Shown: positions 660-17,053, counted from the first letter of the stretch. The stretch is 39,994 nucleotides of DNA from a virus (IMGVR_UViG_3300023371_000094); one strand, 5' to 3'. Program-made: numbers and translations. Notes: a model not told the origin generated them from the letters alone.

Positions 660-1097
660 TCACTTCAATTTTTCGATTGCCATTCTTGCAAGCTCATCAC
701 ATCTGTTGTTGTATTGGTTATCAGAATGACCTTTAACTTTTATGAATTTAACTTGGTGAGGCTTCATAGCGGCAAGCAACTGAAGCCACAATTCTTTGTT
801 TTGTACGGGTTTTCTCCCCTTGGTTTTCCAGCCGGATGCTTGCCAGTTATCAATCCAGCCTTGAGCAAATGCATTTACTACATACGCAGAATCGCTGTAC
901 AGCGAAACTTTGCTCGGTGCTTTTAAGCACTTCAGTGCACTTATAACTGCCTGAAGCTCCATACGGTTGTTTGTCGTGTCTGCTACGCCACCACTGATTT
1001 CCTTTGAGTGTTGACCGTAGAAGAGAATTGCGCCCCAACCGCCAGCGCCGGGGTTTCCTGAACACGCCCCGTCCGTGTAAATAGTTACTTCATACAT
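660..1097 (-). CDS. rnhA: Ribonuclease HI
   Basis: IYTDGACSGNPGAGGWG, TTNNRMELQA, LYSDSAYV, NKELW, VKGHSDNQYNNRCDELA: all catalytic D/E/D/H/D motifs of RNase HI. Confidence 0.95.
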   Translation of the reverse strand: MYEVTIYTDGACSGNPGAGGWGAILFYGQHSKEISGGVADTTNNRMELQAVISALKCLKAPSKVSLYSDSAYVVNAFAQGWIDNWQASGWKTKGRKPVQNKELWLQLLAAMKPHQVKFIKVKGHSDNQYNNRCDELARMAIEKLK

Positions 1098-1111
1098 TTG
1101 TTTTCCTTTCC

Positions 1112-1415
1112 ATTACAATCCACGTATAAATTCAGCGGGCGGAATGATCATGACTGGGCAGAGACAGCTTCGGCGAACCGTAAGAAATCATTTGGATTTG
1201 TGCAAATGATTGTTGAAAAGTGTCTAAAACCCAACATAAATATTAGGTATTTCTGTGGTTTTGCTACCTAAAGCCCGAATCGGAGTCTGATGAGGTGCTC
1301 TCAGTGTCCAAGCTTCCTGCAGGAGGCGCCTGCTGCGTGCCTTCTTCAGTCTCACAATGTGGTACTTTGAGTGTAACCCAAAGCCCTATCTTTCGATAGA
1401 AATAACGATTGTAAT
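1112..1415 (-). ncRNA. Retron-type msr-msd ncRNA cassette R1 (304 nt)
   Basis: Perfect 9-bp terminal inverted repeat ATTACAATC (1407-1415) / GATTGTAAT (1112-1120). Unpaired G at 1406, 5-nt spacer, hairpin (T)CTATC-GAAA-GATAG(G), then 8-bp hairpin GCTTTGGG-TTACA-CTCAAAGT (1364-1384). TG precedes a1. Confidence 0.8.
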
Positions 1416-1419
1416 TGTT

Positions 1420-1613
1420 AAACTTAAATACAATAAAGGAGAATTTTCATCTGCTCGATCAAAATTCTCGTTGTAGTACGGTTCTGAATCACTGGCTTAA
1501 GAAACGCAGTTTCTTAAGGCTTTGACTTCAGAACGGTACTACGTAAGAACCCTCGCGGAACGTCTAATATAATCAGACGTTTGATATGTATATCAAAATT
1601 TCTATTTAAGTTT
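1420..1613 (-). ncRNA. Retron-type msr-msd ncRNA cassette R2 (194 nt) with long msd-like hairpin
   Basis: Starts 1 nt after the RT stop. Perfect 11-bp inverted repeat AAACTTAAATA (1603-1613) / TATTTAAGTTT (1420-1430). G at 1602, spacer AAATT, hairpin TTGATA-TACA-TATCAA, hairpin ACGTCTGA-TTATA-TTAGACGT (1560-1580). Hairpin of about 33 bp at 1473-1542 (29 Watson-Crick pairs, 3-nt loop). Confidence 0.85.
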
Positions 1614-1614
1614 T

Positions 1615-3009
1615 TTATCTATTGCTTATGATGTCCTTGATGATCTGCATCATATCAACACCGAAGCGCTGGTTATACGCCAGAATAATTGCATCGATGT
1701 TTTCCTTTTCTACATTTCTGTAGTATGCAATTTGTCCACCAAGAACCTGCACTTCCTCAACGTCCCACACACGATGATGCGTGTAATCGTTTAAGAAGGA
1801 ATACACCGCCGCCTTGAAAGCCTTTCGCTTTTCGTGACCGATGGTGATTTCGTTATCCTTGTTAAGCATCAGTCCAAGGTTCCAGTTGCGACCGGCGGAA
1901 GAACCATATCTGGTTTTCTCGGTGTTAAGAGAGAAGGGAACATTGAAACGACGGAGAATGTCAAGGATTTCATTCTGTACGGAACCTTCCTTATCGACTT
2001 CCCACGTGAACGACAGGTCGCTCGAAATGAGGATGTCGTCTGCATACCTTGTATAGCAGAGATGAGGGCTATGCTCACGGCACATCTTAGCGATGGCGTG
2101 ATCGATAGGGATCATCATAATATTCGTGATCGTAGGGCTAAACGGAGTACCCTGCGGAAGAACGCCGTTCAGGAAACAGAGAGATAATGCCTTCGACAGA
2201 GCCTCGCGACCTCTTTCGCTCTTAACAATCTCGCTGTAAGGGAAAATGCTGCTAAGCTGACGAAGAACAAATTCGTGAGTAGTGGAACCAAAGAAGTTTG
2301 AAAAATCAAGCTTGAGGAACCAGCGCGAATTGTTTCTCTGGTGACGTTTAAGAGCATCTATCGTAGATCTGCCCTTGACATAAGCAAATGCAGAGGTGTG
2401 ATAGCTTCCGAACAGTTTGTTTTCGAAGGTGATTTTGAGGTCGGTGAGAACGCTCTTAAACTCAGCACGGGGTGCGTCTATGCGGCGGAACCCTGCTTTG
2501 ATGAAGGATTTGATTTTCTCTTCATTTACCTCAAATCCGAGAGGAGTTAGGTACTGAACACACTTAGCAAGAGATTCCTGCTCGATTCTGTTGTGTTCTG
2601 CGCAAGGGTGATTGGTAAGCAATCCCTTCAAGATAGCAAACACATCTGCATAAACGTCTTTGCCGCTGTATGAAATGCCAGAGTTAGCGTTGTGAGTCTT
2701 GAAAATCTCACGCACTACAACCGAGAAACCCTTGTTCTTTTTCATAAGATAAAAGGTTTCGTAAAGGTTTTCTTTGGGTACATCGAAATACTCACGGTGG
2801 CGGTTGTTGAACTTTTCAAGCATACCAACCATAGCCCCGATGTTGATTTTTTCAAGCAGACGGGGCGGGGTGTGGTCACGATATACCGTTCTTGTATCAC
2901 AGGTATCATCCATCATCCTTGCAAAGAACGACTCATTGATACCGTTTAAGATGTCGTCGAAAGAAATCTGGTACTCTTTCTGACGCACCGGTATAGTTAT
3001 GTATGGCAT
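1615..3009 (-). CDS. Retron-type reverse transcriptase with about 170-aa N-terminal extension
   Basis: AFAYVKGRSTIDALKRH (region X, NAxxH-like), FLKLDFSNFFGS, GVLPQGTPFSPTITN, YTRYADDILIS, NLGLMLN (at the VTG position). No group II intron maturase or endonuclease domain recognised. Confidence 0.9.
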   Translation of the reverse strand: MPYITIPVRQKEYQISFDDILNGINESFFARMMDDTCDTRTVYRDHTPPRLLEKINIGAMVGMLEKFNNRHREYFDVPKENLYETFYLMKKNKGFSVVVREIFKTHNANSGISYSGKDVYADVFAILKGLLTNHPCAEHNRIEQESLAKCVQYLTPLGFEVNEEKIKSFIKAGFRRIDAPRAEFKSVLTDLKITFENKLFGSYHTSAFAYVKGRSTIDALKRHQRNNSRWFLKLDFSNFFGSTTHEFVLRQLSSIFPYSEIVKSERGREALSKALSLCFLNGVLPQGTPFSPTITNIMMIPIDHAIAKMCREHSPHLCYTRYADDILISSDLSFTWEVDKEGSVQNEILDILRRFNVPFSLNTEKTRYGSSAGRNWNLGLMLNKDNEITIGHEKRKAFKAAVYSFLNDYTHHRVWDVEEVQVLGGQIAYYRNVEKENIDAIILAYNQRFGVDMMQIIKDIISNR

Positions 3010-3018
3010 AATGTGGAT

Positions 3019-3326
3019 CTCCTATAAACATTTATTTATTGTCATCTCATGAAGACCGCGGAACCTGCGATGGTAATCCTGAAGATGGAGTTTGTCAAGA
3101 TGTTTTGAACAATTATTTATTAACAATGTGTTAATAAACTGGCTCATAAGGGGGTGTTCGGTGGTGGTTTCTCGTGTGCACGGGAGTTACCAGCAGTACC
3201 ACGCTCGCTTGAGCTGGTTGTATCCCGGATTGCATCCCTTCTGAGCGTCGTCGCTCGCTCTGACATCTTGGCACTTTGAATGTAATCCAAAGCCTTATCG
3301 TGAAGATAAGAATTTCTTTATCGGAG
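3019..3326 (-). ncRNA. Retron-type msr-msd ncRNA cassette R3 (308 nt), canonical position upstream of RT
   Basis: a2 CTCCGATAAA (3317-3326) pairs 9/10 with a1 TTTATAGGAG (3019-3028). G at 3316, spacer AAATT, hairpin CTTATC-TTCAC-GATAAG, hairpin GCTTTGGA-TTACA-TTCAAAGT (3273-3293). Long-range stem TGCCAAGATGT/ACATCTTGACA; 10-bp hairpin TTTATTAACA/TGTTAATAAA. Confidence 0.85.
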
Positions 3327-3332
3327 CGTTAC

Positions 3333-4007
3333 TTAAAACGCATCAATATCAAAATTGAATGCGTCTATCGTAACAATTTTCTTGAGTTCCTTCTTTCTGA
3401 TGAAGTTCATAAAGTTAGAAACTCCGTAAGAACAGATGATTCTTACTGTGGGTGCTACTCCCATTTCAACGTTGCACGCCGTTACAGGAGTCGAAGCTTT
3501 AGCTTCTTCGTGAGTGAAGTCCATACTGCGGATGAGATTGTCCACCATACGGGAATCTTTCCAGTCGGCGGCATAATGCTGAGCATCCTCAAGGCGAGTT
3601 CTGAAATCAAACATTGCTTTGATGGACTGATTGGGTTTGTTCTTGATAGCGATTTCACGTCTGAGGTCGATGTTGTCAACGCACAGGAAAACATAGCCAC
3701 TCAAGCGTGTGTTCTGTGTCCACCCTTCGGGGTAAACAGTGATGTCGTTCGCGGCTTCGGGGTTAATTGCACACAGCATATCCTTTACCGCATCAACCTT
3801 GAGTCGCTTGATGTCTGCATTGGTAAACATCTGGTTCGCCAGATTGTGAGCAGAAACGACGTCAAAGTCGTAGAGGGAAATCTTTGTGATACCGAGGCGA
3901 ACAAGAAGCTCTGCCACGGTAGAGCCGACGGAGCCACAGCCGATGATGTGACATCGGCTGGTTACGTCAATAGGATTGAAGTAGTCCTGTGATTTTACGA
4001 GATTCAT
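3333..4007 (-). CDS. ThiF/E1-like ubiquitin-activating enzyme
   Basis: IIGCGSVGS nucleotide-binding loop, DFDVVSAHNLANQ, KVDA, LCVDN, candidate catalytic Cys in TACNV. The ATG at 4007 overlaps the upstream stop (ATGA), so it is preferred to the track start at 4016. Confidence 0.9.
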   Translation of the reverse strand: MNLVKSQDYFNPIDVTSRCHIIGCGSVGSTVAELLVRLGITKISLYDFDVVSAHNLANQMFTNADIKRLKVDAVKDMLCAINPEAANDITVYPEGWTQNTRLSGYVFLCVDNIDLRREIAIKNKPNQSIKAMFDFRTRLEDAQHYAADWKDSRMVDNLIRSMDFTHEEAKASTPVTACNVEMGVAPTVRIICSYGVSNFMNFIRKKELKKIVTIDAFNFDIDAF

Positions 4008-5008
4008 ACTGAGCACCTCTCTCTGTAGAGTTTGTAGTAGTCGTCCTCATCATCGTCGTCATAGAGGGAAATTTGGCGTCCATAATCATCGTCGTCTTCG
4101 ACGTCGGGACGTTTGCTCTGCAAGGATGAGGTAGTCTTCGGGGTTGTTGCCGCTGCCGGAGCGCTTCCGTTGTATGTGCCGTGATAAGGATAGGTTGATA
4201 CGGGGGCAGTAACTCTACGCTCTACAACTACGCCTTCAGCTTCAGAGATAAGTTCCGAAAGGAAGAAGTCATCTTCTACCTCGACATCAGAGGAAATCGT
4301 GAAGCTAAGCTCACCCTTACTATTGATCGAAGTAAGGTTCTTTTGAGTGAGCCTGTCTACATATTCCTCAATGGCATCGTGGAATGCGTCCTTGATGCGT
4401 CTCTTGATGTCTTCAATCTCGATTACCGAGAATTCGATTTCATTGGTAGCATATAAAGCGTTATTCGACAAGTCGTAGATTTCGCCACTGATATCGCCTT
4501 TTTTGTTTGTGATGATGAAGATGTAGAAGTAATCATCTCCTGCACCCGGTGTAGCGAAGTTGCCCAAGATGTTCTTCCTGTATGTCATATCAACTCCTGA
4601 CGGGCTTACAGCCATATTTACGTGGCTATGACCGTGGAAACGACAGGCGTTGAAGGTTTCGTCATCGAGGGAGTCAAGCCATTCTTCGTAGCATCTCTGA
4701 TCGGATACTACCGTTGCGCTGGAAACCTCGTGAGGGAAAATGAGGATGTCCTTAATGAGGAATTCTGCCTCACCTTTGCGCTCAACAAGCCCGTGCCACT
4801 CGACTTCAGTGCCGTATTTGTGAACTAAAGCGTACATTTTCACCCACGCACTGGCTGCAAAAACAAGTTTTGCTTTGCGATTGTCTTTAGGAGCAGGGAG
4901 TGTAACCTTGACATCCTCGGAATGAAACTTCGTATTGCGGAGTTCCTGCGTTGCTTTCTCAAGAGCTGCGCGAATGTCCTCATCGGACAAATAAATTCTC
5001 TTAGCCAT
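4004..5008 (-). CDS. JAB/JAMM (MPN) metallo-isopeptidase
   Basis: EVEWHG (catalytic Glu) and FHGHSHVNMAVSPSGVD match the HxH-x7-S-x2-D JAMM motif. Acidic low-complexity C-terminus. Start set at ATG 5008 behind GAAGGAG. Confidence 0.85.
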   Translation of the reverse strand: MAKRIYLSDEDIRAALEKATQELRNTKFHSEDVKVTLPAPKDNRKAKLVFAASAWVKMYALVHKYGTEVEWHGLVERKGEAEFLIKDILIFPHEVSSATVVSDQRCYEEWLDSLDDETFNACRFHGHSHVNMAVSPSGVDMTYRKNILGNFATPGAGDDYFYIFIITNKKGDISGEIYDLSNNALYATNEIEFSVIEIEDIKRRIKDAFHDAIEEYVDRLTQKNLTSINSKGELSFTISSDVEVEDDFFLSELISEAEGVVVERRVTAPVSTYPYHGTYNGSAPAAATTPKTTSSLQSKRPDVEDDDDYGRQISLYDDDDEDDYYKLYRERCSV

Positions 5009-6398
5009 TGTTATCTCCTTCATTGTTCTCCGCCGTTCTGATGTAGTTAAGGAACTCTCTGGGAGTCATTTCGGTGCCGTTATCTGCGATAATGCAACGG
5101 CAAGACTCAAAGCGACCTGCGACATCTCTCAACATCTTGGATACTACGGTCGAGTCTCCAAAGTTGACGTTCTTGGCAGCCGCGATTGTCTGCTCGATTG
5201 CCAAATCCCAGTCGCCATCATTCATATATCTGGCGATTGCATCTCGGTTTCCACCGAGACAAGCGTGATGATAGATGTGAGGATGAGGAAGGTGTGTTTC
5301 ATCATAGCCACCACTTCTCATACCGGATTGGGCATTGATGCTTGAAAGATTGTTCAACGTAAACATTGCCTCAACTCTGAACTTTCCCTTATTGAGAGCG
5401 AATACAGCGTTAAACACCTCTCTGACTTCTGCACCACAAGTGCTCGTATTGAAGTAAGAATTGGGGTTATCTCTTACTCTTACGAAAGCATCCTCGTCAT
5501 AATACTCAATCGTTTCGGTGATTGTGTAATACAACGTCTTTCCGTTCGAGCTGTTCTGAACTCTGTAAACTCCCAACTGCTTGTGGGTTTTGAAGAAATT
5601 AAACAGAGCTTCGTTGGTATCTGCGGGTTGGTTAAGCATCGCGTTGAGATTAAAGAGCAGGGCATCAAGCTCCATATACAAAGTTGAGATAGCCTGTTCT
5701 TGTGCGGCAATATTGTTTCTCGCCTTGTCGCACTTGCTTTCGAGGGTACGAATCTGTGCTTCTCTGAAGTGATTGTTCCATCCGATGAGAGTTCTTGCCA
5801 TCATCATAGATTTGAAATCATACTTCTGAGCCAGCTCGTTCACCACCTTGGTGAACTTTGGGGAATCTTTATCGTGAGCCGCCTTGAAAAGTGCGAGCTC
5901 ACCTTCCGTGAGTCTGTAGTTTTCCGTATAGATCCACGGAAGAATTCTGAAAAGGGAAGAGCAGAACTCATCAATCCATCTTTCAGTAACACGCTTAACA
6001 AAAAGAATAACCTTTTGTGCATCCCTGTTAAGGAATACTGCTGTGGCAGATGCCTTGCTCAAGAAAGGCGCAACAGGATACGGAGGCGTATCTAATGCAA
6101 TCCAGCCCTCTTTGTCAATGTAAGGCAACTCTGCTCCGTTTCTCGATTCTACAATGAGAATATTGTGAGACGACTCCATCATCGAAGCCGCGAAATCATT
6201 GCCGCGAGCACCGGGGCTAAAGGTAGAGGACTGAACCTTAATCAGCTTTACCTTTTCGATGTTCTCGGGGCAATGAACCACGGCAACATAACGAAGCGTT
6301 GCTTCGAGGACGGTGCTACCGAAAGGGAATGAATGACTCTCCACTCCGAAGAATGCATTTGCGTCTGAATTGGTTAATAGAGTATCGATGTAATCCAT
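5001..6398 (-). CDS. Prokaryotic E2-like (UBC-fold) protein with central coiled coil
   Basis: C-terminal LPHPHIYHHACLGG resembles the E2 HPN-x-CL active site. Heptad-rich segment around aa 205-255. Located between Ubl and JAB. Confidence 0.6.
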   Translation of the reverse strand: MDYIDTLLTNSDANAFFGVESHSFPFGSTVLEATLRYVAVVHCPENIEKVKLIKVQSSTFSPGARGNDFAASMMESSHNILIVESRNGAELPYIDKEGWIALDTPPYPVAPFLSKASATAVFLNRDAQKVILFVKRVTERWIDEFCSSLFRILPWIYTENYRLTEGELALFKAAHDKDSPKFTKVVNELAQKYDFKSMMMARTLIGWNNHFREAQIRTLESKCDKARNNIAAQEQAISTLYMELDALLFNLNAMLNQPADTNEALFNFFKTHKQLGVYRVQNSSNGKTLYYTITETIEYYDEDAFVRVRDNPNSYFNTSTCGAEVREVFNAVFALNKGKFRVEAMFTLNNLSSINAQSGMRSGGYDETHLPHPHIYHHACLGGNRDAIARYMNDGDWDLAIEQTIAAAKNVNFGDSTVVSKMLRDVAGRFESCRCIIADNGTEMTPREFLNYIRTAENNEGDNNG

Positions 6399-6427
6399 AT
6401 CCCGTTGCTCCTTATGTATGCTTTATT

Positions 6428-6670
6428 TTACTTGCGAGCGCCGTCAGCCTTGATGACGCTGTTGAGGTTTACGGTTGCGCCGTCGGCAACACCGAGTGCC
6501 TCGAAGGTGGAATTGAGATCGGTCGCGGTCAGAATCATACCGTTAAGGTTAACGGATGCGCCAGCTACGCTAACGCCGAGGTCGCCGAATACTCTTGCGG
6601 GAGTGGAATCCACGTCTGCGGTAACTTCCTTGCCACGGATGGTGTTGGTCTTGATAACAACTTTAATCAT
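6428..6670 (-). CDS. Ubiquitin-like beta-grasp protein
   Basis: 80 aa with a beta-grasp-like pattern (MIKVVIK...SVNLNG...STFEALGVADGATVNL) ending KADG-ARK. First gene of the E2/JAB/E1 cluster. Confidence 0.75.
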   Translation of the reverse strand: MIKVVIKTNTIRGKEVTADVDSTPARVFGDLGVSVAGASVNLNGMILTATDLNSTFEALGVADGATVNLNSVIKADGARK

Positions 6671-6761
6671 AATAATTCTCCTTGTAATTCAATTTTTTCT
6701 GATTTGTTTGTTGTGGTGGAAGGGGCGCATTTCACGCCCCTTGGTGAACGGAAACCGTAAC

Positions 6762-7148
6762 TTAGGCTACGGTGATGCTGTCAACGAGCTCCTTGCGAGC
6801 AGTCTTAGCTGCAACAGCCGCGTCGTGAGCAACTCCCTCGACCTGCTCAAGGTATGCCTTGACAGGAGCAACGAGGTCAGCAACGAACTCCTTGGGGTTC
6901 GCGGTGCCGGTGGGGATCATACCTGTGATGGTTGCATAGCCTGCCTCATCGTGAGACTTACCGCCGAAGGTAACGCCGAAAGCGGTGATGCTGGGCTTAC
7001 CCTCTGCATACGAAACCGCAAACTTCTCGTTGCCGTCTGCGTCCTTAACCTTGAGGGCGTCGGGATTGCTCTTCTTGAGCGTCTTGATCTCGTCAACGGT
7101 GATCTTCGAGGTGATGGCGTAGGCATCTGCTGTGATTGTGATTTTCAT
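6762..7148 (-). CDS. Hypothetical protein upstream of the Ubl operon
   Basis: 128-aa ORF with RBS AAAGGAAGGAA; co-oriented with its neighbours. Confidence 0.7.
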   Translation of the reverse strand: MKITITADAYAITSKITVDEIKTLKKSNPDALKVKDADGNEKFAVSYAEGKPSITAFGVTFGGKSHDEAGYATITGMIPTGTANPKEFVADLVAPVKAYLEQVEGVAHDAAVAAKTARKELVDSITVA

Positions 7149-7217
7149 AGTGTGTTTCCTTCCTTTATGAAATGTATTTTTTTATCACTCTAATGAGTTG
7201 ATAACGAAGATTAGTGT

Positions 7218-7241
7218 CTAAATATGGGTTGTCATATTTAG
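7218..7241. promoter_or_regulatory. Inverted pair of CTAAATATG boxes (operator-like)
   Basis: CTAAATATG-ggttgt-CATATTTAG, intergenic. The same 9-mer occurs in several promoter spacers. Confidence 0.6.
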
Positions 7242-7249
7242 AAAAAATC

Positions 7250-7312
7250 GAGAGGCGTTTTAATCGTAAAAATTTGTTGGCTACGAAGAAAAAGGTTTGC
7301 TGTTCGCCTCTC
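7250..7312 (-). ncRNA. Stem-closed ACAGCAA RNA module (a), just 3' of DUF2828
   Basis: GAGAGGCG-a-ACAGCAA...CGCCTCTC, 8-bp closing stem. Confidence 0.55.
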
Positions 7313-7328
7313 TGTTGAAGTATGTATA

Positions 7329-8846
7329 TTATTTCAACGCATCTTCAACAGGCTGATATCTGGGTGTGTTGAGTGTCTCAAGCAGGCACTCGAACGGATC
7401 TGTCTTGCCACTCATAACCATCTTACAGATGTTTACGGAGAAACCGCTTACAAGGGCAACTCCCATATTGTTCTCACGAACGGGGATGGTATTCGTTCTG
7501 GAGTTTACGTTCCAGAATACGAGGCGAGGGAGCTTATATCCATATCCTCTGTACTTGGCTTCGATGGTTTTGAAGAGATTTGCACCAATGCGACCGGTAG
7601 TTGCACAGTCAAACTCCATATCGGAGATGATAAGGATGTTCGCAGGAATATCCTCTTGGCGCATATTGTTACGAATCGCAGTGTTCAAAATGAGGTCGAA
7701 TACCGCCTCGATATTGGTGTTAGAAATCTCGCTGTGCCCAAGAGCAATAGAAATCTTGTCGCGCAAACTCTGCCCACGACTGAAATCAACGAGCTGAGGA
7801 CGGGAGGAGAAGGTGATGTACTTGTTCTTGAACTCGCCAGAAGAACGCTCTGCAAAGTAGATTGCCAAAGAATTTGCAACTTCAAGAGCAGTCACTCCCG
7901 AGCTACCTACTCTCGACATCATCGAGCCAGAGCCGTCGGCAACAACGATCGTATTACCGCATCCCTGAACAAGGTCGGGGAGGTTCTTCCAAAGAGCTTC
8001 GATTGTTGCGTCATAACTCTTTGGGGTTCTACCATAACCGCCACTGCAGTACTGGTGTACGATGTCGTAAGGGAAGAGTGTAGAAGCATTGATGCGTGCT
8101 TCACCCTTTTCAAGGCTTGCAAGGAATGCTCTTCTTCGTTCCTCGTCGTTTCTGAGGAATGCGCCGTTGTAAATAAGATTTGCACGAGAGGGAACTGCTT
8201 CGTAATCGATTTCGCCCCACATCTTAGCAGACATCTTAACCTCGACGACGTCCGTATATCTACGGAGTGCGCTGAGTGTTCTACGGTATTCGCTTTCCTT
8301 CATCTCAAGAGCATTGCGTAAGATCTTTGCATATCTCTTAGTAGTAGCGGAGGAAGCATTTGCGGATGGCATCCATTTACCGAGAAGGGAAATAGGCTTT
8401 CTGTTGCGACTGTTCGCAACATCTTCGGTGAGTTGCTGACTTACAAACTCAACAATATAGGGACGAAGCTCGTTGTCGTCGAGGAGCGACCAAAGGTCAT
8501 CATATCTTCCGTATTCCGGAATAAGTCCGACAACCTTACGAGCCGTCTCGGGCTCATACTTGGCTATGTATTTCATTGCGGTTCTGAAGAGCCTACGCTC
8601 GCCAAGACCGCCGCGCACATCTCTGGCGAAGAAGAGCCACTTCATAGCCAGAACTTTGTTTTCGAGAAATGCTGCCTGAAAACGACGGACGATTTCACCT
8701 TCGTTTGCGGAACGGAGAGATGCGACCGCAAAGTTGATGTCAAGCAGAGCTTTGCCTGTCGTGCGGTATCCTACCGCGCCGTTCTCGGTGACGGACTCGT
8801 TGAAATTTTCGAGCATTTCATTCTTCATTGCATCCATAAAACTCAT
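7329..8846 (-). CDS. DUF2828 family protein (helical N-terminus plus VWA; possibly a distant TROVE/Ro60 relative)
   Basis: TENGA, LFFARDVRGGLGER, KWMPS, VVADGSGSM (MIDAS), IISDMEFD, VFWNV. Confidence 0.85.
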   Translation of the reverse strand: MSFMDAMKNEMLENFNESVTENGAVGYRTTGKALLDINFAVASLRSANEGEIVRRFQAAFLENKVLAMKWLFFARDVRGGLGERRLFRTAMKYIAKYEPETARKVVGLIPEYGRYDDLWSLLDDNELRPYIVEFVSQQLTEDVANSRNRKPISLLGKWMPSANASSATTKRYAKILRNALEMKESEYRRTLSALRRYTDVVEVKMSAKMWGEIDYEAVPSRANLIYNGAFLRNDEERRRAFLASLEKGEARINASTLFPYDIVHQYCSGGYGRTPKSYDATIEALWKNLPDLVQGCGNTIVVADGSGSMMSRVGSSGVTALEVANSLAIYFAERSSGEFKNKYITFSSRPQLVDFSRGQSLRDKISIALGHSEISNTNIEAVFDLILNTAIRNNMRQEDIPANILIISDMEFDCATTGRIGANLFKTIEAKYRGYGYKLPRLVFWNVNSRTNTIPVRENNMGVALVSGFSVNICKMVMSGKTDPFECLLETLNTPRYQPVEDALK

Positions 8847-8893
8847 TGTTTTAACCCTCTTTCTTTTTTATTTTTGTTTGAATGGATGTCCCC

Positions 8894-8952
8894 AAGACGC
8901 AGAAGTATTCAGATTAACCGTCTGAGCTTTTGAAATTTGCTGTAAGCGTCTT
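8894..8952 (-). ncRNA. ACAGCAA module (b) in the DUF2828 5' leader
   Basis: AAGACGC-tt-ACAGCAA...TCAGA-CGGTTAA-TCTGA...GCGTCTT. Confidence 0.55.
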
Positions 8953-8968
8953 AGAGGGTTGTAAGAGC

Positions 8969-9031
8969 AAGGCACATTGCAAGATAAAAATTCCCTAAAT
9001 TTTCCTTTGTTAATATTGCTGTGAGTGCCTT
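8969..9031 (-). ncRNA. ACAGCAA module (c)
   Basis: AAGGCAC-tc-ACAGCAA...AAAAT-TTAGGGA-ATTTT...GTGCCTT. Confidence 0.55.
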
Positions 9032-9033
9032 AA

Positions 9034-9163
9034 TGGTTGGGAAGGTTGGATTCGAACCAACGTAACATAATGTGGCGGATTTTCAGTCCGTACATTGCAG
9101 TTGTGGTCTTAACCAAGACCAACATAATGGTTCCGCTGTCTTTAGCCACTTGACTACTTCCCA
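9034..9163 (-). tRNA. tRNA-like gene, GAA (Phe) anticodon, long variable arm, 45-nt insertion in the anticodon stem
   Basis: Acceptor TGGGAAG/CTTCCCA-A-CCA, T arm GTTGG-TTCGAAT-CCAAC. Anticodon arm GCGGA-CTGAAAA-TCCGC is restored by removing 9090-9134. Confidence 0.65.
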
Positions 9164-9169
9164 ATAAAG

Positions 9170-9254
9170 TGGTGGGCGAGGCAGGACTCGAACCTGCGAA
9201 GCCGAACGGCAACGGGTTTACAGCCCGCCGGAATTGCCGCTATCCGACTCGCCC
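9170..9254 (-). tRNA. tRNA-Tyr(GTA)
   Basis: GGGCGAG/CTCGCCC-A-CCA, GCGGG-CTGTAAA-CCCGT, long variable arm, GCAGG-TTCGAGT-CCTGC. Confidence 0.92.
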
Positions 9255-9263
9255 AAAGCGATG

Positions 9264-9381
9264 CGAGAGTGGCAGGACTCGAACCTGCGACCACGGAGTT
9301 AACAGCTCAAAATAACCTTGCAGTATAAGGCTTTTACAAACCTCGTTAATTACGTGCTCTATCCAACTGAGCTACACTCTC
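9264..9381 (-). tRNA. tRNA-Asn(GTT) with 44-nt insertion between nt 28 and 29
   Basis: GAGAGTG/CACTCTC-G73, GCTC-AGTTGGATA-GAGC, CG[9309-9352]GAG-CTGTTAA-CTCCG, canonical T arm. No encoded CCA. Confidence 0.7.
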
Positions 9382-9388
9382 GATACGG

Positions 9389-9504
9389 TAGGGGTGATAG
9401 GATTTGAACCTATGACCACGAGCGAATGCAGTGCTAAAGAAAATTGCAGTAGCAGTCGATAACTCGACTAACAATACGTGCTCTAACCGCTGAGCTACAC
9501 CCCT
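9389..9504 (-). tRNA. tRNA-like gene with 41-nt insertion at 28/29 and a 9-nt anticodon loop (GCA central)
   Basis: AGGGGTG/CACCCCT-A, GCTC-AGCGGTTA-GAGC, CG[9436-9476]AGC-ACTGCATTC-GCTCG, ATAGG-TTCAAAT-CCTAT. Confidence 0.6.
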
Positions 9505-9512
9505 ATAAAGGT

Positions 9513-9606
9513 GACGGGGAATAAGAGATTACTTTCGTGGGAGGGTTGAAAAATTATAAGCTTTTCAAATTTCTTTATATGTAGATTGCTGTAAGCGATC
9601 CCCGTC
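9513..9606 (-). ncRNA. ACAGCAA module (d)
   Basis: GACGGGGA...ACAGCAA...TTGAAAAG-CTTATAA-TTTTTCAA...TCCCCGTC. Confidence 0.55.
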
Positions 9607-9647
9607 CGTGTCGCTTGGAAAGAACGGAAGTAATCTCGGGAAAATAC

Positions 9648-9783
9648 AAGGCACAAGTTGAAGATAAGGGCGCCAATGGAAACGGCGCTGGTTGCGCGGC
9701 GGCAATTGCGGAGATTGCCGTAAAGGGGCGCAAGATTGTAAGAATATGTTGTTTATTTCATAAGAAATTGCTGTATGTGCCTT
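9648..9783 (-). ncRNA. ACAGCAA module (e)
   Basis: AAGGCACA-t-ACAGCAA...GCGCCG-TTTCCAT-TGGCGC...TGTGCCTT. Confidence 0.55.
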
Positions 9784-10141
9784 AAACATTAGGGAAGCGC
9801 GTCATTCTGGTTGTTTTCCAAGGTAAGATGCAACCTAACTTTGCCTTGGTCATCCTCTCGTCTTTCCGAGTCGTCATTGACGGGCTTCAAGGAGCGTTCC
9901 CAGAAGGGAGATGGGAAAGGGGGAACGCATTTCGGGGAAGCGTAACCCGTAAACATTCAACGAGCGAATTACGCCCGGGGCGAGTATCGCCCAGTATCGC
10001 TTCAAATCACTCTTAACGGCTGTTCATCTAACTCCATTTACCACTGCTGCTTCGGCTCCCCAAAGTATTACGGGGGTGCTTTCTTCAACTACATACTCCG
10101 CATTTAATTGAGGCTTCGTGGCACCGTATTAAGAAATTGGT

Positions 10142-10417
10142 TTAGAGCTTTTTACCACGGATACTTTTGTTCCAAACCATCCCATTGTCAACCTCAGCGA
10201 AGTCGAACTTTTCATTCAGTTGCTCTATGAGCGACCAAATGGTATAATCCACGGGCTGGGGCTTCTCTTTGTTTTTAGAAAAGTGTTTGGAGGCAAATAT
10301 CTCGAAGGCAATATACCTCAAAATTTCACCTTCGCTATGTTGCAAGAGGCAATTCGTGGCTTCTTTTCTTGTTGCGTAAGGAACAGAGCAAAGAGGGCAA
10401 TGATAATGCTCATTCAT
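10142..10417 (-). CDS. Small hypothetical protein, N-terminal Zn-finger-like motif
   Basis: CPLC...C...H near the N-terminus; RBS AAGGAGA. Confidence 0.65.
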   Translation of the reverse strand: MNEHYHCPLCSVPYATRKEATNCLLQHSEGEILRYIAFEIFASKHFSKNKEKPQPVDYTIWSLIEQLNEKFDFAEVDNGMVWNKSIRGKKL

Positions 10418-10443
10418 AGCTTTCTCCTTATCAAATAATTGTT

Positions 10444-10472
10444 TTATGAGGTTTCTAAATATGGTTTATAAT
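10444..10472 (+). promoter_or_regulatory. Weak sigmaA-type promoter pointing antisense into R4
   Basis: TTATGA-17 bp (contains CTAAATATGG)-TATAAT. Confidence 0.4.
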
Positions 10473-10477
10473 GTCCG

Positions 10478-10783
10478 TACCACAATCCATGTATAAAACC
10501 TGAAGTGAGCTCATCCGACGAAGAGTCCCGAGGATGTCGAAATAAGGTTAATTATTTCGAGTTCAACAGGAAAATTAAGTTGAAAAGATGTGGATAATTA
10601 CCAATTTATAGGTATTTAGTGGAGGATAAGTCGCCGACTTTGGCTGGGAGATGGCGCATTGCGACGTTTAACGGGCGATGCAGCCATCCGGATCGTAGAT
10701 CCGATGAGTAATCCTTCTCACATCTTGTCACTTTGAGTGTAACCCAAAGCCCTTCCCAAAGGGAAGACATTTCGATTGTAGTA
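10478..10783 (-). ncRNA. Remote retron-type msr-msd ncRNA cassette R4 (306 nt)
   Basis: a2 TACTACAATC (10774-10783) / a1 GATTGTGGTA (10478-10487), 10 bp with one G-U. G at 10773, spacer AAATG, hairpin TCTTCCC-TTT-GGGAAGG, hairpin GCTTTGGG-TTACA-CTCAAAGT (10730-10750) identical to R1. Confidence 0.82.
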
Positions 10784-10924: not shown

Positions 10925-10953
10925 ATTATAAACCATATTTAGAACTTTGTCAA
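10925..10953 (-). promoter_or_regulatory. Consensus sigmaA promoter driving the leftward RNA/accessory region
   Basis: TTGACA-aagttctaaatatggtt (17)-TATAAT, with an upstream A/T tract. Confidence 0.85.
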
Positions 10954-16750: not shown

Positions 16751-16779
16751 TTGACAAGTGTCTAAATATGGTGTATAAT
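16751..16779 (+). promoter_or_regulatory. Consensus sigmaA promoter for the rightward arm
   Basis: TTGACA-agtgtctaaatatggtg (17)-TATAAT. Upstream AAAACCCC also found at the 10953 promoter. Confidence 0.85.
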
Positions 16780-17053
16780 ATATACAGTAGGATTCCAGAG
16801 GATAAAGATTGTAAGAGATATTCGCTGACCAATACGCCCACACATACGGGCTGCTAACTGATTCAATTACGTCTTTATCACTCTTGGCAAGAGTCTCGAA
16901 CGAAGTGAGAGCTGATTACAGACAAGTGCATAATTGCATTTTAAGGTATACCTTCCTTTTTAGGGAGTGAAAAATCTTCCCCTATATAGGGACTAATTTG
17001 AACCAGTTTGCAACCCCCCGGGTTGCATTTTTGTTTTTTACGGAGGATTTTTA

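Follow-up and report, generated by a model that had tools for sequence, protein, structure and literature searches.

A divergent retron-type reverse transcriptase of gut phages with an array of msr-msd-like RNAs, encoded at the end of a putative ubiquitin-like operon

One RT gene and five retron-like cassettes

Retrons are understood as combinations of one reverse transcriptase (RT), one noncoding RNA (ncRNA) and one toxin-like effector guarding bacteria. Here we describe a locus in which a single retron-type RT gene is accompanied by several paralogous ncRNA cassettes with the geometry of retron msr-msd transcripts and ends an operon for putative ubiquitin-like (Ubl) protein conjugation. The stretch analysed (hereafter, the window) comprises 39,994 nt and represents the minus strand of the virus record IMGVR_UViG_3300023371_000094, a 76-kb IMG/VR sequence estimated to be ~52% complete. 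The RT gene and the cassettes, each bounded by complementary arms a2 and a1, are as follows.

1112..1415, minus strand: R1, long-type retron-like ncRNA, 304 nt; a2 ATTACAATC, candidate branch G at 1406, hairpins A and B, variable core, and a 3′ end formed by G and a1 GATTGTAAT, adjoining the ribosome-binding site (RBS) of rnhA
1420..1613, minus strand: R2, short-type ncRNA, 194 nt; a2/a1 pairing 11/11, candidate branch G at 1602, long msd-like hairpin
1615..3009, minus strand: retron-type RT, 464 aa; RT and thumb at residues 172-448 (RVT_1)
3019..3326, minus strand: R3, long-type ncRNA, 308 nt, in the canonical place directly 5′ of the RT gene; candidate branch G at 3316
10478..10783, minus strand: R4, long-type ncRNA, 306 nt, a remote copy in the 5′ leader of a 91-aa open reading frame (ORF); candidate branch G at 10773
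G000:C1:58581-58752 of the virus record, plus strand: R5, fifth cassette, 172 nt, ~1.4 kb past the window start; a2 GTTTAAATA, a1 TATTTAAAC

R1-R4 share one order of elements, namely a2, an invariant G, a 5-nt linker, hairpin A, hairpin B with a UUAYA loop, the variable core, a G and a1. Their linkers read TTATT, AAATT, AAATT and AAATG, respectively. Hairpin A comprises 6-7 bp. Hairpin B comprises 8 bp, of which the second, fourth and seventh are C-G, U-A and G-U, respectively, and the eighth is either G-C or A-U. Pairing between a2 and a1 extends over 9/9 positions in R1, 9/10 in R3 and 10/10, including one G-U, in R4. R3 starts 7 nt past the stop codon of the preceding gene, encoding an E1-like protein, and its a1 (TTTATAGGAG) contains the Shine-Dalgarno sequence of the RT gene, while R2 starts 2 nt past the RT stop codon. 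An earlier annotation, made by a model without database searches (the sequence-only reading), had described this 5′ geometry, and the coordinates, linkers, hairpins and a1/a2 pairs that it assigned to R1-R4 are all present on the minus strand as placed. It had also given UG as the dinucleotide before a1, of which only the G is invariant, the preceding base being U, A or G. Its four ncRNAs are real but the count was incomplete: a covariance-model search of the whole virus record recovered R5, situated outside the window, immediately after the stop codon of a metallophosphatase-like gene and ahead of the RBS of the following ORF; an AAA_33/KTI12-like kinase gene comes next. The genome contains five units in total, which are either ~305 nt or 172-194 nt long.

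Minimum-free-energy (MFE) folds of R1-R4 were closed by a1/a2 and formed both hairpins in 4/4 cases. R2 stood out for its stability, with a fold z-score of -10, while the long forms (R1, R3 and R4) had scores from -3.4 to -5.4. A direct-repeat scan independently recovered a 38-nt hairpin-B segment common to R1, R3 and R4, R2 being too diverged. When R1, R3 and R4 were compared with each other, only the 5′ 72 nt and the last ~10 nt before a1 could be aligned. Folded as DNA, the predicted cDNAs of R2 (z = -9.7) and R5 (z = -6.3) formed strong hairpins, and those of the long units were moderately structured only. No cassette matched Rfam at gathering scores or at E <= 1. A long-range stem between the stretch following hairpin B and a downstream segment, present in the MFE folds of R3 and R4, was rejected as a family feature, the best complement in 30 units having no constant position and unremarkable shuffle p-values. 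The idea that msd cores serve as recombination or targeting templates for the phage's own genome was dropped as well, since they matched the rest of that genome only over 11-16 nt (E 0.3-4).

Conservation and covariation of the cassettes

To collect further cassettes, we built a covariance model from the 57-nt 5′ scaffold of R1-R4 and iterated it once on its hits. The model scored its own four copies at E ~1e-13 to 1e-15, and it also found matches beside RT homologues in IMG/VR contigs with RT identity of only 38-55%. After iteration, 33 credible same-strand copies were obtained from the window and 17 related phage loci; the only two opposite-strand matches in this 17-locus set were both weak and both overlapped strong same-strand ones. 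The model found 72 matches in 49 further loci, as many as five in a single locus, and all of them (72/72) were on the strand of the RT. One cassette was always found ~300 nt 5′ of the RT, the extra ones standing in tandem after or before, and unit lengths across the family ranged from 172 to 328 nt.

Both hairpins and the closing stem are maintained by covariation. In the aligned hits, 98.3% of hairpin cells pair and 13/14 pairs have changed on both sides, compared to at most 52% pairing in slid controls, although the alignment was fitted to the model and therefore favours pairing. Nearly every unit has, 170-330 nt downstream, a complement of 7-14 nt to the bases before the invariant G, immediately preceded by a G in 31/33 units, with shuffle p <= 0.05 in most. 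RNAalifold, applied to 23 full-length units, recovered the a1/a2 stem only, with compensatory changes at 10/10 pairs, and the cores do not align. The candidate branch G following a2 is invariant in all aligned same-strand units and, judging by its position, is predicted to act as the primer. Thus, covariation in homologous loci, which the sequence-only reading had singled out as a point on which it might fail, is present in both hairpins and in a1/a2, and the cassette family is more than a chance assemblage.

Two cassettes flanking the RT of one related locus (L006:8464-8737 and L006:11188-11486) have identical 52-nt 5′ scaffolds and different a2/a1 arms and cores. Judging by their sequences, the pair appears to stem from a recent duplication, after which the variable parts were replaced.

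A divergent member of the retron RTs

Based on hidden Markov models (HMMs), a profile search against PDB and the predicted fold, the RT is of retron type, but divergent. Its best NCBIfam model was that of the retron St85 RT (167 bits over the whole model, under the curated cut-off of 235); group II, Drt2, Drt3a and AbiA models gave 60, 43, 34 and 27 bits, respectively. PADLOC retron RT models were the best for 38/38 aligned family members, those of type II-A coming first, followed by I-A and III-A. The family profile retrieved the retron RTs Ec83, Ec78, Ec67, Kva2 and Ec86 as top PDB hits, aligned through the thumb, and the AlphaFold2 model (pLDDT 91.7) had its best fold matches in retron RTs Eco7, Ec83 and Ec86 (root-mean-square deviation 3.2-4 Å over ~290 residues), group II, DRT9, DRT2 and DGR RTs ranking lower. 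These results favour the placement within the retron group on which the sequence-only reading depended.

The YADD motif is invariant in the family. Of the two motifs typical of retron RTs, NAxxH reads (D)AVKRH and VTG reads NLG, with N, A, V and T lost and H223 and G379 invariant throughout. H and G are the most conserved residues of these motifs in retron RTs, where regions X and Y have been linked to initiation and msr recognition (PMC7736814). The family also has a specific, conserved N-terminal domain of 100-170 aa, which classical retron RTs lack; in the RT of the window, this domain includes an insert of ~75 aa. In two members (L099 and L102; G001:C43 and G003:C1), the RT match is split into residues 172-334 and 346-461 within a single frame of 481-521 aa, indicating that the palm carries an insertion.

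Linkage to a putative Ubl/E2-like/JAMM/E1 operon

The RT gene and R3 are preceded by four genes of a putative Ubl conjugation operon, and R1 is followed by an RNase HI gene:

660..1097, minus strand: RNase HI (rnhA), directly after R1; NF001236, 209 bits; candidate msDNA-maturation factor
3333..4016, minus strand: E1-like ThiF adenylyltransferase, 227 aa; last protein gene ahead of R3 and the RT
4004..5023, minus strand: JAMM/JAB-type metallopeptidase, 339 aa; assigned by motif conservation; acidic C-terminal tail
5001..6398, minus strand: putative E2-like protein, 465 aa; conserved His374/Cys380 pair close to the C-terminus
6428..6670, minus strand: putative ubiquitin-like protein, 80 aa; assigned by size, position and C-terminus (...KADG-ARK) only

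Genes between 660 and 6670 are tightly packed and all on the minus strand, in the order 80-aa putative Ubl, 465-aa protein, 339-aa protein, 227-aa ThiF/E1, a 308-nt gap, the 464-aa RT, a gap of ~500 nt and RNase HI. E1 is the only operon member found by library HMMs (Pfam, PADLOC E1-E2 and NCBIfam cap2-type models). The 339-aa protein has no Pfam match, and its JAMM motif (E73, H132, H134, S142 and D145) is conserved in 75 homologues. Its C-terminal tail is strongly acidic, being rich in D, E and Y, and might mimic nucleic acid or serve for docking. The 465-aa protein, for which neither Pfam nor PADLOC gave a match, is putatively E2-like, as judged from the conserved His374/Cys380 pair, and the 80-aa protein is putatively ubiquitin-like.

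Association of these genes with the RT is conserved. In viral loci collected by tblastn with the RT as a seed, the E1, 339-aa and 465-aa proteins are encoded directly upstream of the RT in 16/17 cases, the exception being truncated by a contig end. Reciprocally, the RT follows in 19/20 loci collected with E1, the exception being cut by a contig end. Among loci from metagenome-assembled genomes (MAGs) with enough flanking sequence, E1 is located within 3 kb upstream of the RT in 42/46. The adjacency persists down to ~37% RT identity while downstream genes vary. The arrangement is not rigid: in L088 the RT lies between the 339-aa (JAMM) gene and E1, in four loci rnhA is inserted between E1 and the RT, and in L076 and L086 a distance of 6-7 kb separates E1 from the RT. 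Since rnhA is found in only 12/56 loci, it is considered accessory. One MAG encodes two RTs of the family; the operon is present at one of them (L072), and the other (L062) is followed by rnhA, with no Ubl operon within 8 kb and no match to the cassette model.

PADLOC effector models matched none of the neighbours except for the E1-E2 models. The earlier statement that the system has no recognisable classical effector is incomplete, as it had overlooked the conserved Ubl/E2-like/JAMM/E1 operon with its terminal RT. The words ThiF and ubiquitin are absent from the text of the retron classification paper (PMC7736814).

Further upstream in the window (7329-8846, minus strand), between the operon and R4, lies a gene for a DUF2828/DUF7788/vWA protein (phrog_850, 'RNA-binding protein') with a Ro/TROVE-like build. 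It occurs in only 6/56 related loci and is therefore regarded as accessory and not tied to the cassettes.

Distribution in phages and gut bacteria

Sequence identical to that of the window is also present in a Clostridia MAG from sheep colon, on a contig of 106 kb. MAG contigs with the RT family were obtained from the guts of ruminants, rabbits, chickens, termites and humans, and most of them are assigned to Clostridia. Several relatives are on bacterial contigs, with ABC-transporter genes 35-290 kb from the RT, suggesting that the lineage includes integrated prophages; hence 'phage-borne', as the locus had been described, is borne out by the phage contigs and has to be extended to prophages. 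The phage GenBank collection yielded no nucleotide match to the stretch. Among the protein matches examined there, L107 belongs to the family and is preceded by genes for E1, JAMM and E2-like proteins, and L105 and L106 are classical retron RTs with NAxxH and VTG.

Comparison with known systems

The nearest relatives of the RT are found in classical retrons of groups II-A (St85/Sen2), I-A (Ec78/Eco7 and Ec83) and III-A (PMC7736814), which it resembles in sequence and fold. Further shared features are the position of msr-msd directly 5′ of the RT, the a1/a2 stem with a G at its inner end, the covarying msr stem-loops and the frequent location in prophages (PMC7736814). In contrast to the single ncRNA of classical retrons, there are two to five per RT here, many of them 250-330 nt long with multi-hairpin cores. 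In addition, the RT has the extra N-terminal domain, and NAxxH/VTG are reduced to H/G. None of the 13 described retron effector sets is present, the RT instead ending the Ubl/E2-like/JAMM/E1 operon.

The nearest analogue in the literature, likewise with arrays of templates, is UG27. Its RT, a class 2 UG/Abi enzyme from gut phages, was noted in 2022 (PMC9226505). The variable UG27 arrays of 135-167-nt ncRNAs give rise to 50-100-nt hairpin cDNAs, and two accessory proteins are needed (10.64898/2026.09.22.753630, September 2026 preprint). Both systems have a phage or prophage RT (~380-450 aa), a variable array conserved in structure and diverse in sequence, and hosts among gut Bacillota/Bacteroidota. 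However, UG27 units contain a pseudoknot and AUC-N7-UANAG and UUYA motifs, whereas the units described here are closed by a1/a2 and have a G at the branch position. The AUC-N7-UANAG pattern occurs six times in the window, which is at chance level, and never inside a cassette. The UG27 active site is YSDD, while here YADD is invariant and retron models score best, so that by published descriptions the RT is set apart from UG27. The partners differ as well: two domain-less proteins (sORF and bORF; clusters 337/346) in UG27 and a ThiF E1 with a JAMM peptidase here, the latter unreported in the UG27 papers.

With its Ubl and E2 genes putatively assigned, the operon would share its gene set and order (Ubl, E2, JAB, E1) with BilABCD operons (bioRxiv 10.1101/2023.09.04.556158; PMC10557695). 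The papers searched mention neither an RT nor an ncRNA as part of Bil systems, and here the E2-like protein is 465 aa long with a large N-terminal part and library HMMs recognise E1 alone. Engineered retron arrays ('multitrons'; bioRxiv 10.1101/2023.07.17.549397) likewise combine one RT with several msr-msd units, each yielding its own RT-DNA, but they are synthetic and intended for multiplexed editing, whereas the layout found here is natural and conserved. The literature search returned only such engineered arrays and no natural multi-msr-msd retron, phage-encoded retron of this kind or retron joined to Ubl, JAB or ThiF genes. The one-RT multi-RNA layout at the end of a Ubl operon is therefore not described in the papers or RNA libraries searched. 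The earlier claim that no known retron type has this organisation agrees with that literature, with the qualification that publications of 2022 and 2026 describe an analogous array system for UG27, an unrelated phage RT.

Divergence and expression of the cassettes

The closest comparison is offered by L050, whose RT is 97% identical. The R3 core is 5% diverged between the two, as opposed to 11% for E1 and 9% for the RT (mostly at silent sites). Scaffold parts are 0-3% diverged, and the R2 core 17%, with the changes in internal loops. Over window positions 660-4000, divergence is mosaic (rnhA 0.5%, R1 2-3%, RT 9% and E1 11%), a pattern that points to recombination with a breakpoint close to R2/R1. 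In relatives more distant than one of 93% identity, BLAST detects only the 5′ scaffold, indicating that cores turn over in the long term. Nevertheless, every copy retains its own a1/a2 pairing via a different sequence, as well as both invariant G residues. Because the many-RNAs-per-RT layout is conserved across the family, R1, R2 and R4 are not obvious relics, an outcome that the sequence-only reading had considered along with their being decoys.

In two gut metatranscriptome libraries, available as contigs only, short contigs are located inside R1 (1163-1336), R3 (3038-3287) and the R4 core, and the protein genes of the stretch are nearly uncovered. These contigs weakly support expression of the cassettes.

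A retron with several templates and its alternatives

The locus is probably best explained as a divergent retron of large temperate or virulent phages of gut Clostridia, in which one RT serves an array of msr-msd RNAs, five in the present genome. This explanation is built on the RNA geometry, covariation, multi-copy layout, linkage to the Ubl operon and retron-type RT, all observed at the locus and in its relatives. Each RNA would be transcribed within the operon or in a 5′ leader, and a2/a1 pairing would bring the invariant G beside the 3′ part of the RNA. The RT is expected to recognise the common 5′ scaffold, comprising hairpin A, hairpin B and a conserved single-stranded GUAAC-like stretch, to prime from the 2′-OH of the invariant G and to copy the variable core into a distinct single-stranded DNA (ssDNA) per cassette. 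Short-type cassettes are predicted to yield cDNAs of ~90-130 nt, and long-type cassettes cDNAs of up to ~230 nt. Trimming of the template may be carried out by RNase HI, phage-encoded where present and otherwise that of the host.

Several points weigh against this explanation. The St85 score lies under the curated cut-off, N, A, V and T of the NAxxH and VTG motifs are lost, and the long-type cores are only moderately structured and lack the one long msd hairpin seen in classical retrons. R1 may owe part of its low divergence to a recombined block, because the adjacent rnhA is only 0.5% diverged. The metatranscriptome contigs show neither strand, ends nor level and could stem from DNA carry-over. 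L062 has the RT and rnhA without the operon, and the Ubl linkage could be inherited synteny of one phage lineage, because the upstream orf128 is syntenic too. In addition, reverse transcription, branching, cDNA ends and biological role are what we infer from these data.

That only the RT-proximal R3 is a working template, the others being RNA decoys, regulators acting via RBS-adjacent a1 arms or decaying duplicates, seems improbable to us. R3 does occupy the canonical msr-msd-RT position, and no feature is more constant from locus to locus than a cassette there; R1, R3 and R5 have a1 arms that abut or contain the RBS of the following gene; and the R2 core is the most diverged part in L050. However, both G residues, after a2 and before a1, are kept in all copies, as is the pairing of a1 with a2 through different sequences, the extra copies are conserved in number and strand in distant relatives, and the metatranscriptome contigs cover R1 and R4 as well as R3. 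Marginally more credit, though still little, can be given to the RNAs being ligands or templates used by the RT in a non-retron way, either with unbranched priming as in UG27/DRT or as a scaffold, a1/a2 then being a mere closing helix. This would be consistent with the altered region X and Y motifs, with long cores unlike the classical msd, and with the precedent of UG27, an unrelated phage RT whose arrays give short hairpin cDNAs that look unbranched and which depends on accessory proteins (bioRxiv 10.64898/2026.09.22.753630). Against it, the G ending a2 is invariant in all copies exactly at the retron branch position, the most conserved H and G of both motifs are invariant, the fold of the RT is nearest to retron RTs, and the UG27 start motif is not found in the cassettes. 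We find it very hard to believe that the cassettes are not RT substrates at all and represent miniature inverted-repeat mobile elements or Y-RNA-like partners of the Ro/TROVE-like DUF2828 protein. Short inverted repeats do bound each cassette, and the DUF2828 gene, annotated as encoding an 'RNA-binding protein', is located between R3 and R4, but the repeats are different in every copy, unlike those of such elements, all cassettes have the orientation of the RT and track it while DUF2828 does not, and even relaxed Rfam searches gave no match.

As to the role of the multi-template retron, the RT and its msDNA panel would, in our preferred view, act together with the Ubl/E2-like/JAMM/E1 cassette in phage-phage or phage-host conflict. 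Joint action is favoured by analogy with type I-A retrons that co-opted Septu PtuAB, retrons being known to co-opt other defence modules (PMC12819146). A serious rival, and one that we regard as quite possible, is mere conserved synteny, in which the RT-RNA module and the Ubl operon are independent systems side by side in a conserved phage block and the RT has no dedicated partner genes. The synteny indeed reaches past the operon to orf128, L062 dispenses with the operon, and in L076 and L086 E1 is at a distance. Conversely, the adjacency has outlasted RT divergence to ~37% identity with the downstream genes varying, the RT is inside the operon in L088, and in the window the operon genes overlap or abut, with R3 beginning almost directly after E1. 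The most specific proposal, that a retron lineage has co-opted a complete Ubl conjugation cascade whose activity RT-bound msDNAs gate or guide, or of which they are targets, is tentative and rather doubtful. If correct, RT-made DNA and protein tagging would constitute one phage conflict system, a coupling undescribed for retrons or Bil-type operons.

Implications

A whole lineage of abundant gut and rumen phages maintains a retron with a fast-diverging template array and no classical effector, joined to an operon for putative Ubl tagging. If all cassettes are reverse-transcribed, it would represent a natural 'multitron', with one enzyme producing a defined panel of ssDNAs in vivo, and would be of direct interest for multiplexed retron editing. 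The RT is also compact, and dozens of natural variants are at hand from which its requirements for the scaffold can be deduced. Phages would then have evolved RT-plus-template arrays in two independent cases, the first being UG27, which points to a general use of small ssDNA repertoires in phage biology. Should the link to the Ubl operon be functional, it would join two immune-type machineries so far studied apart.

Predicted promoters and tRNA matches in the window

Upstream of the remote cassette R4, the following promoter was predicted:

10925..10953, minus strand: sigma-70-type promoter (TTGACA, 17 nt, TATAAT), ~140 nt upstream of R4; 12/12 consensus match, assigned by consensus match only

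A second perfect TTGACA-17-TATAAT promoter is present at 16751-16785 on the plus strand, and the two have a common spacer form, A(A)GT(G/T)TCTAAATATGG. The plus strand of R1 at 1213-1228 matches the -35 element and spacer of the promoter at 16751 in 15/16 positions; the match is real but at about chance level for such a search, and the equivalent region of R3 and R4 has poor -10 elements, so that this promoter look-alike is regarded as unproven. Finally, three Rfam tRNA matches are located at 9173-9504 on the minus strand; two of them span 116-118 nt, which implies inserts of ~40 nt.

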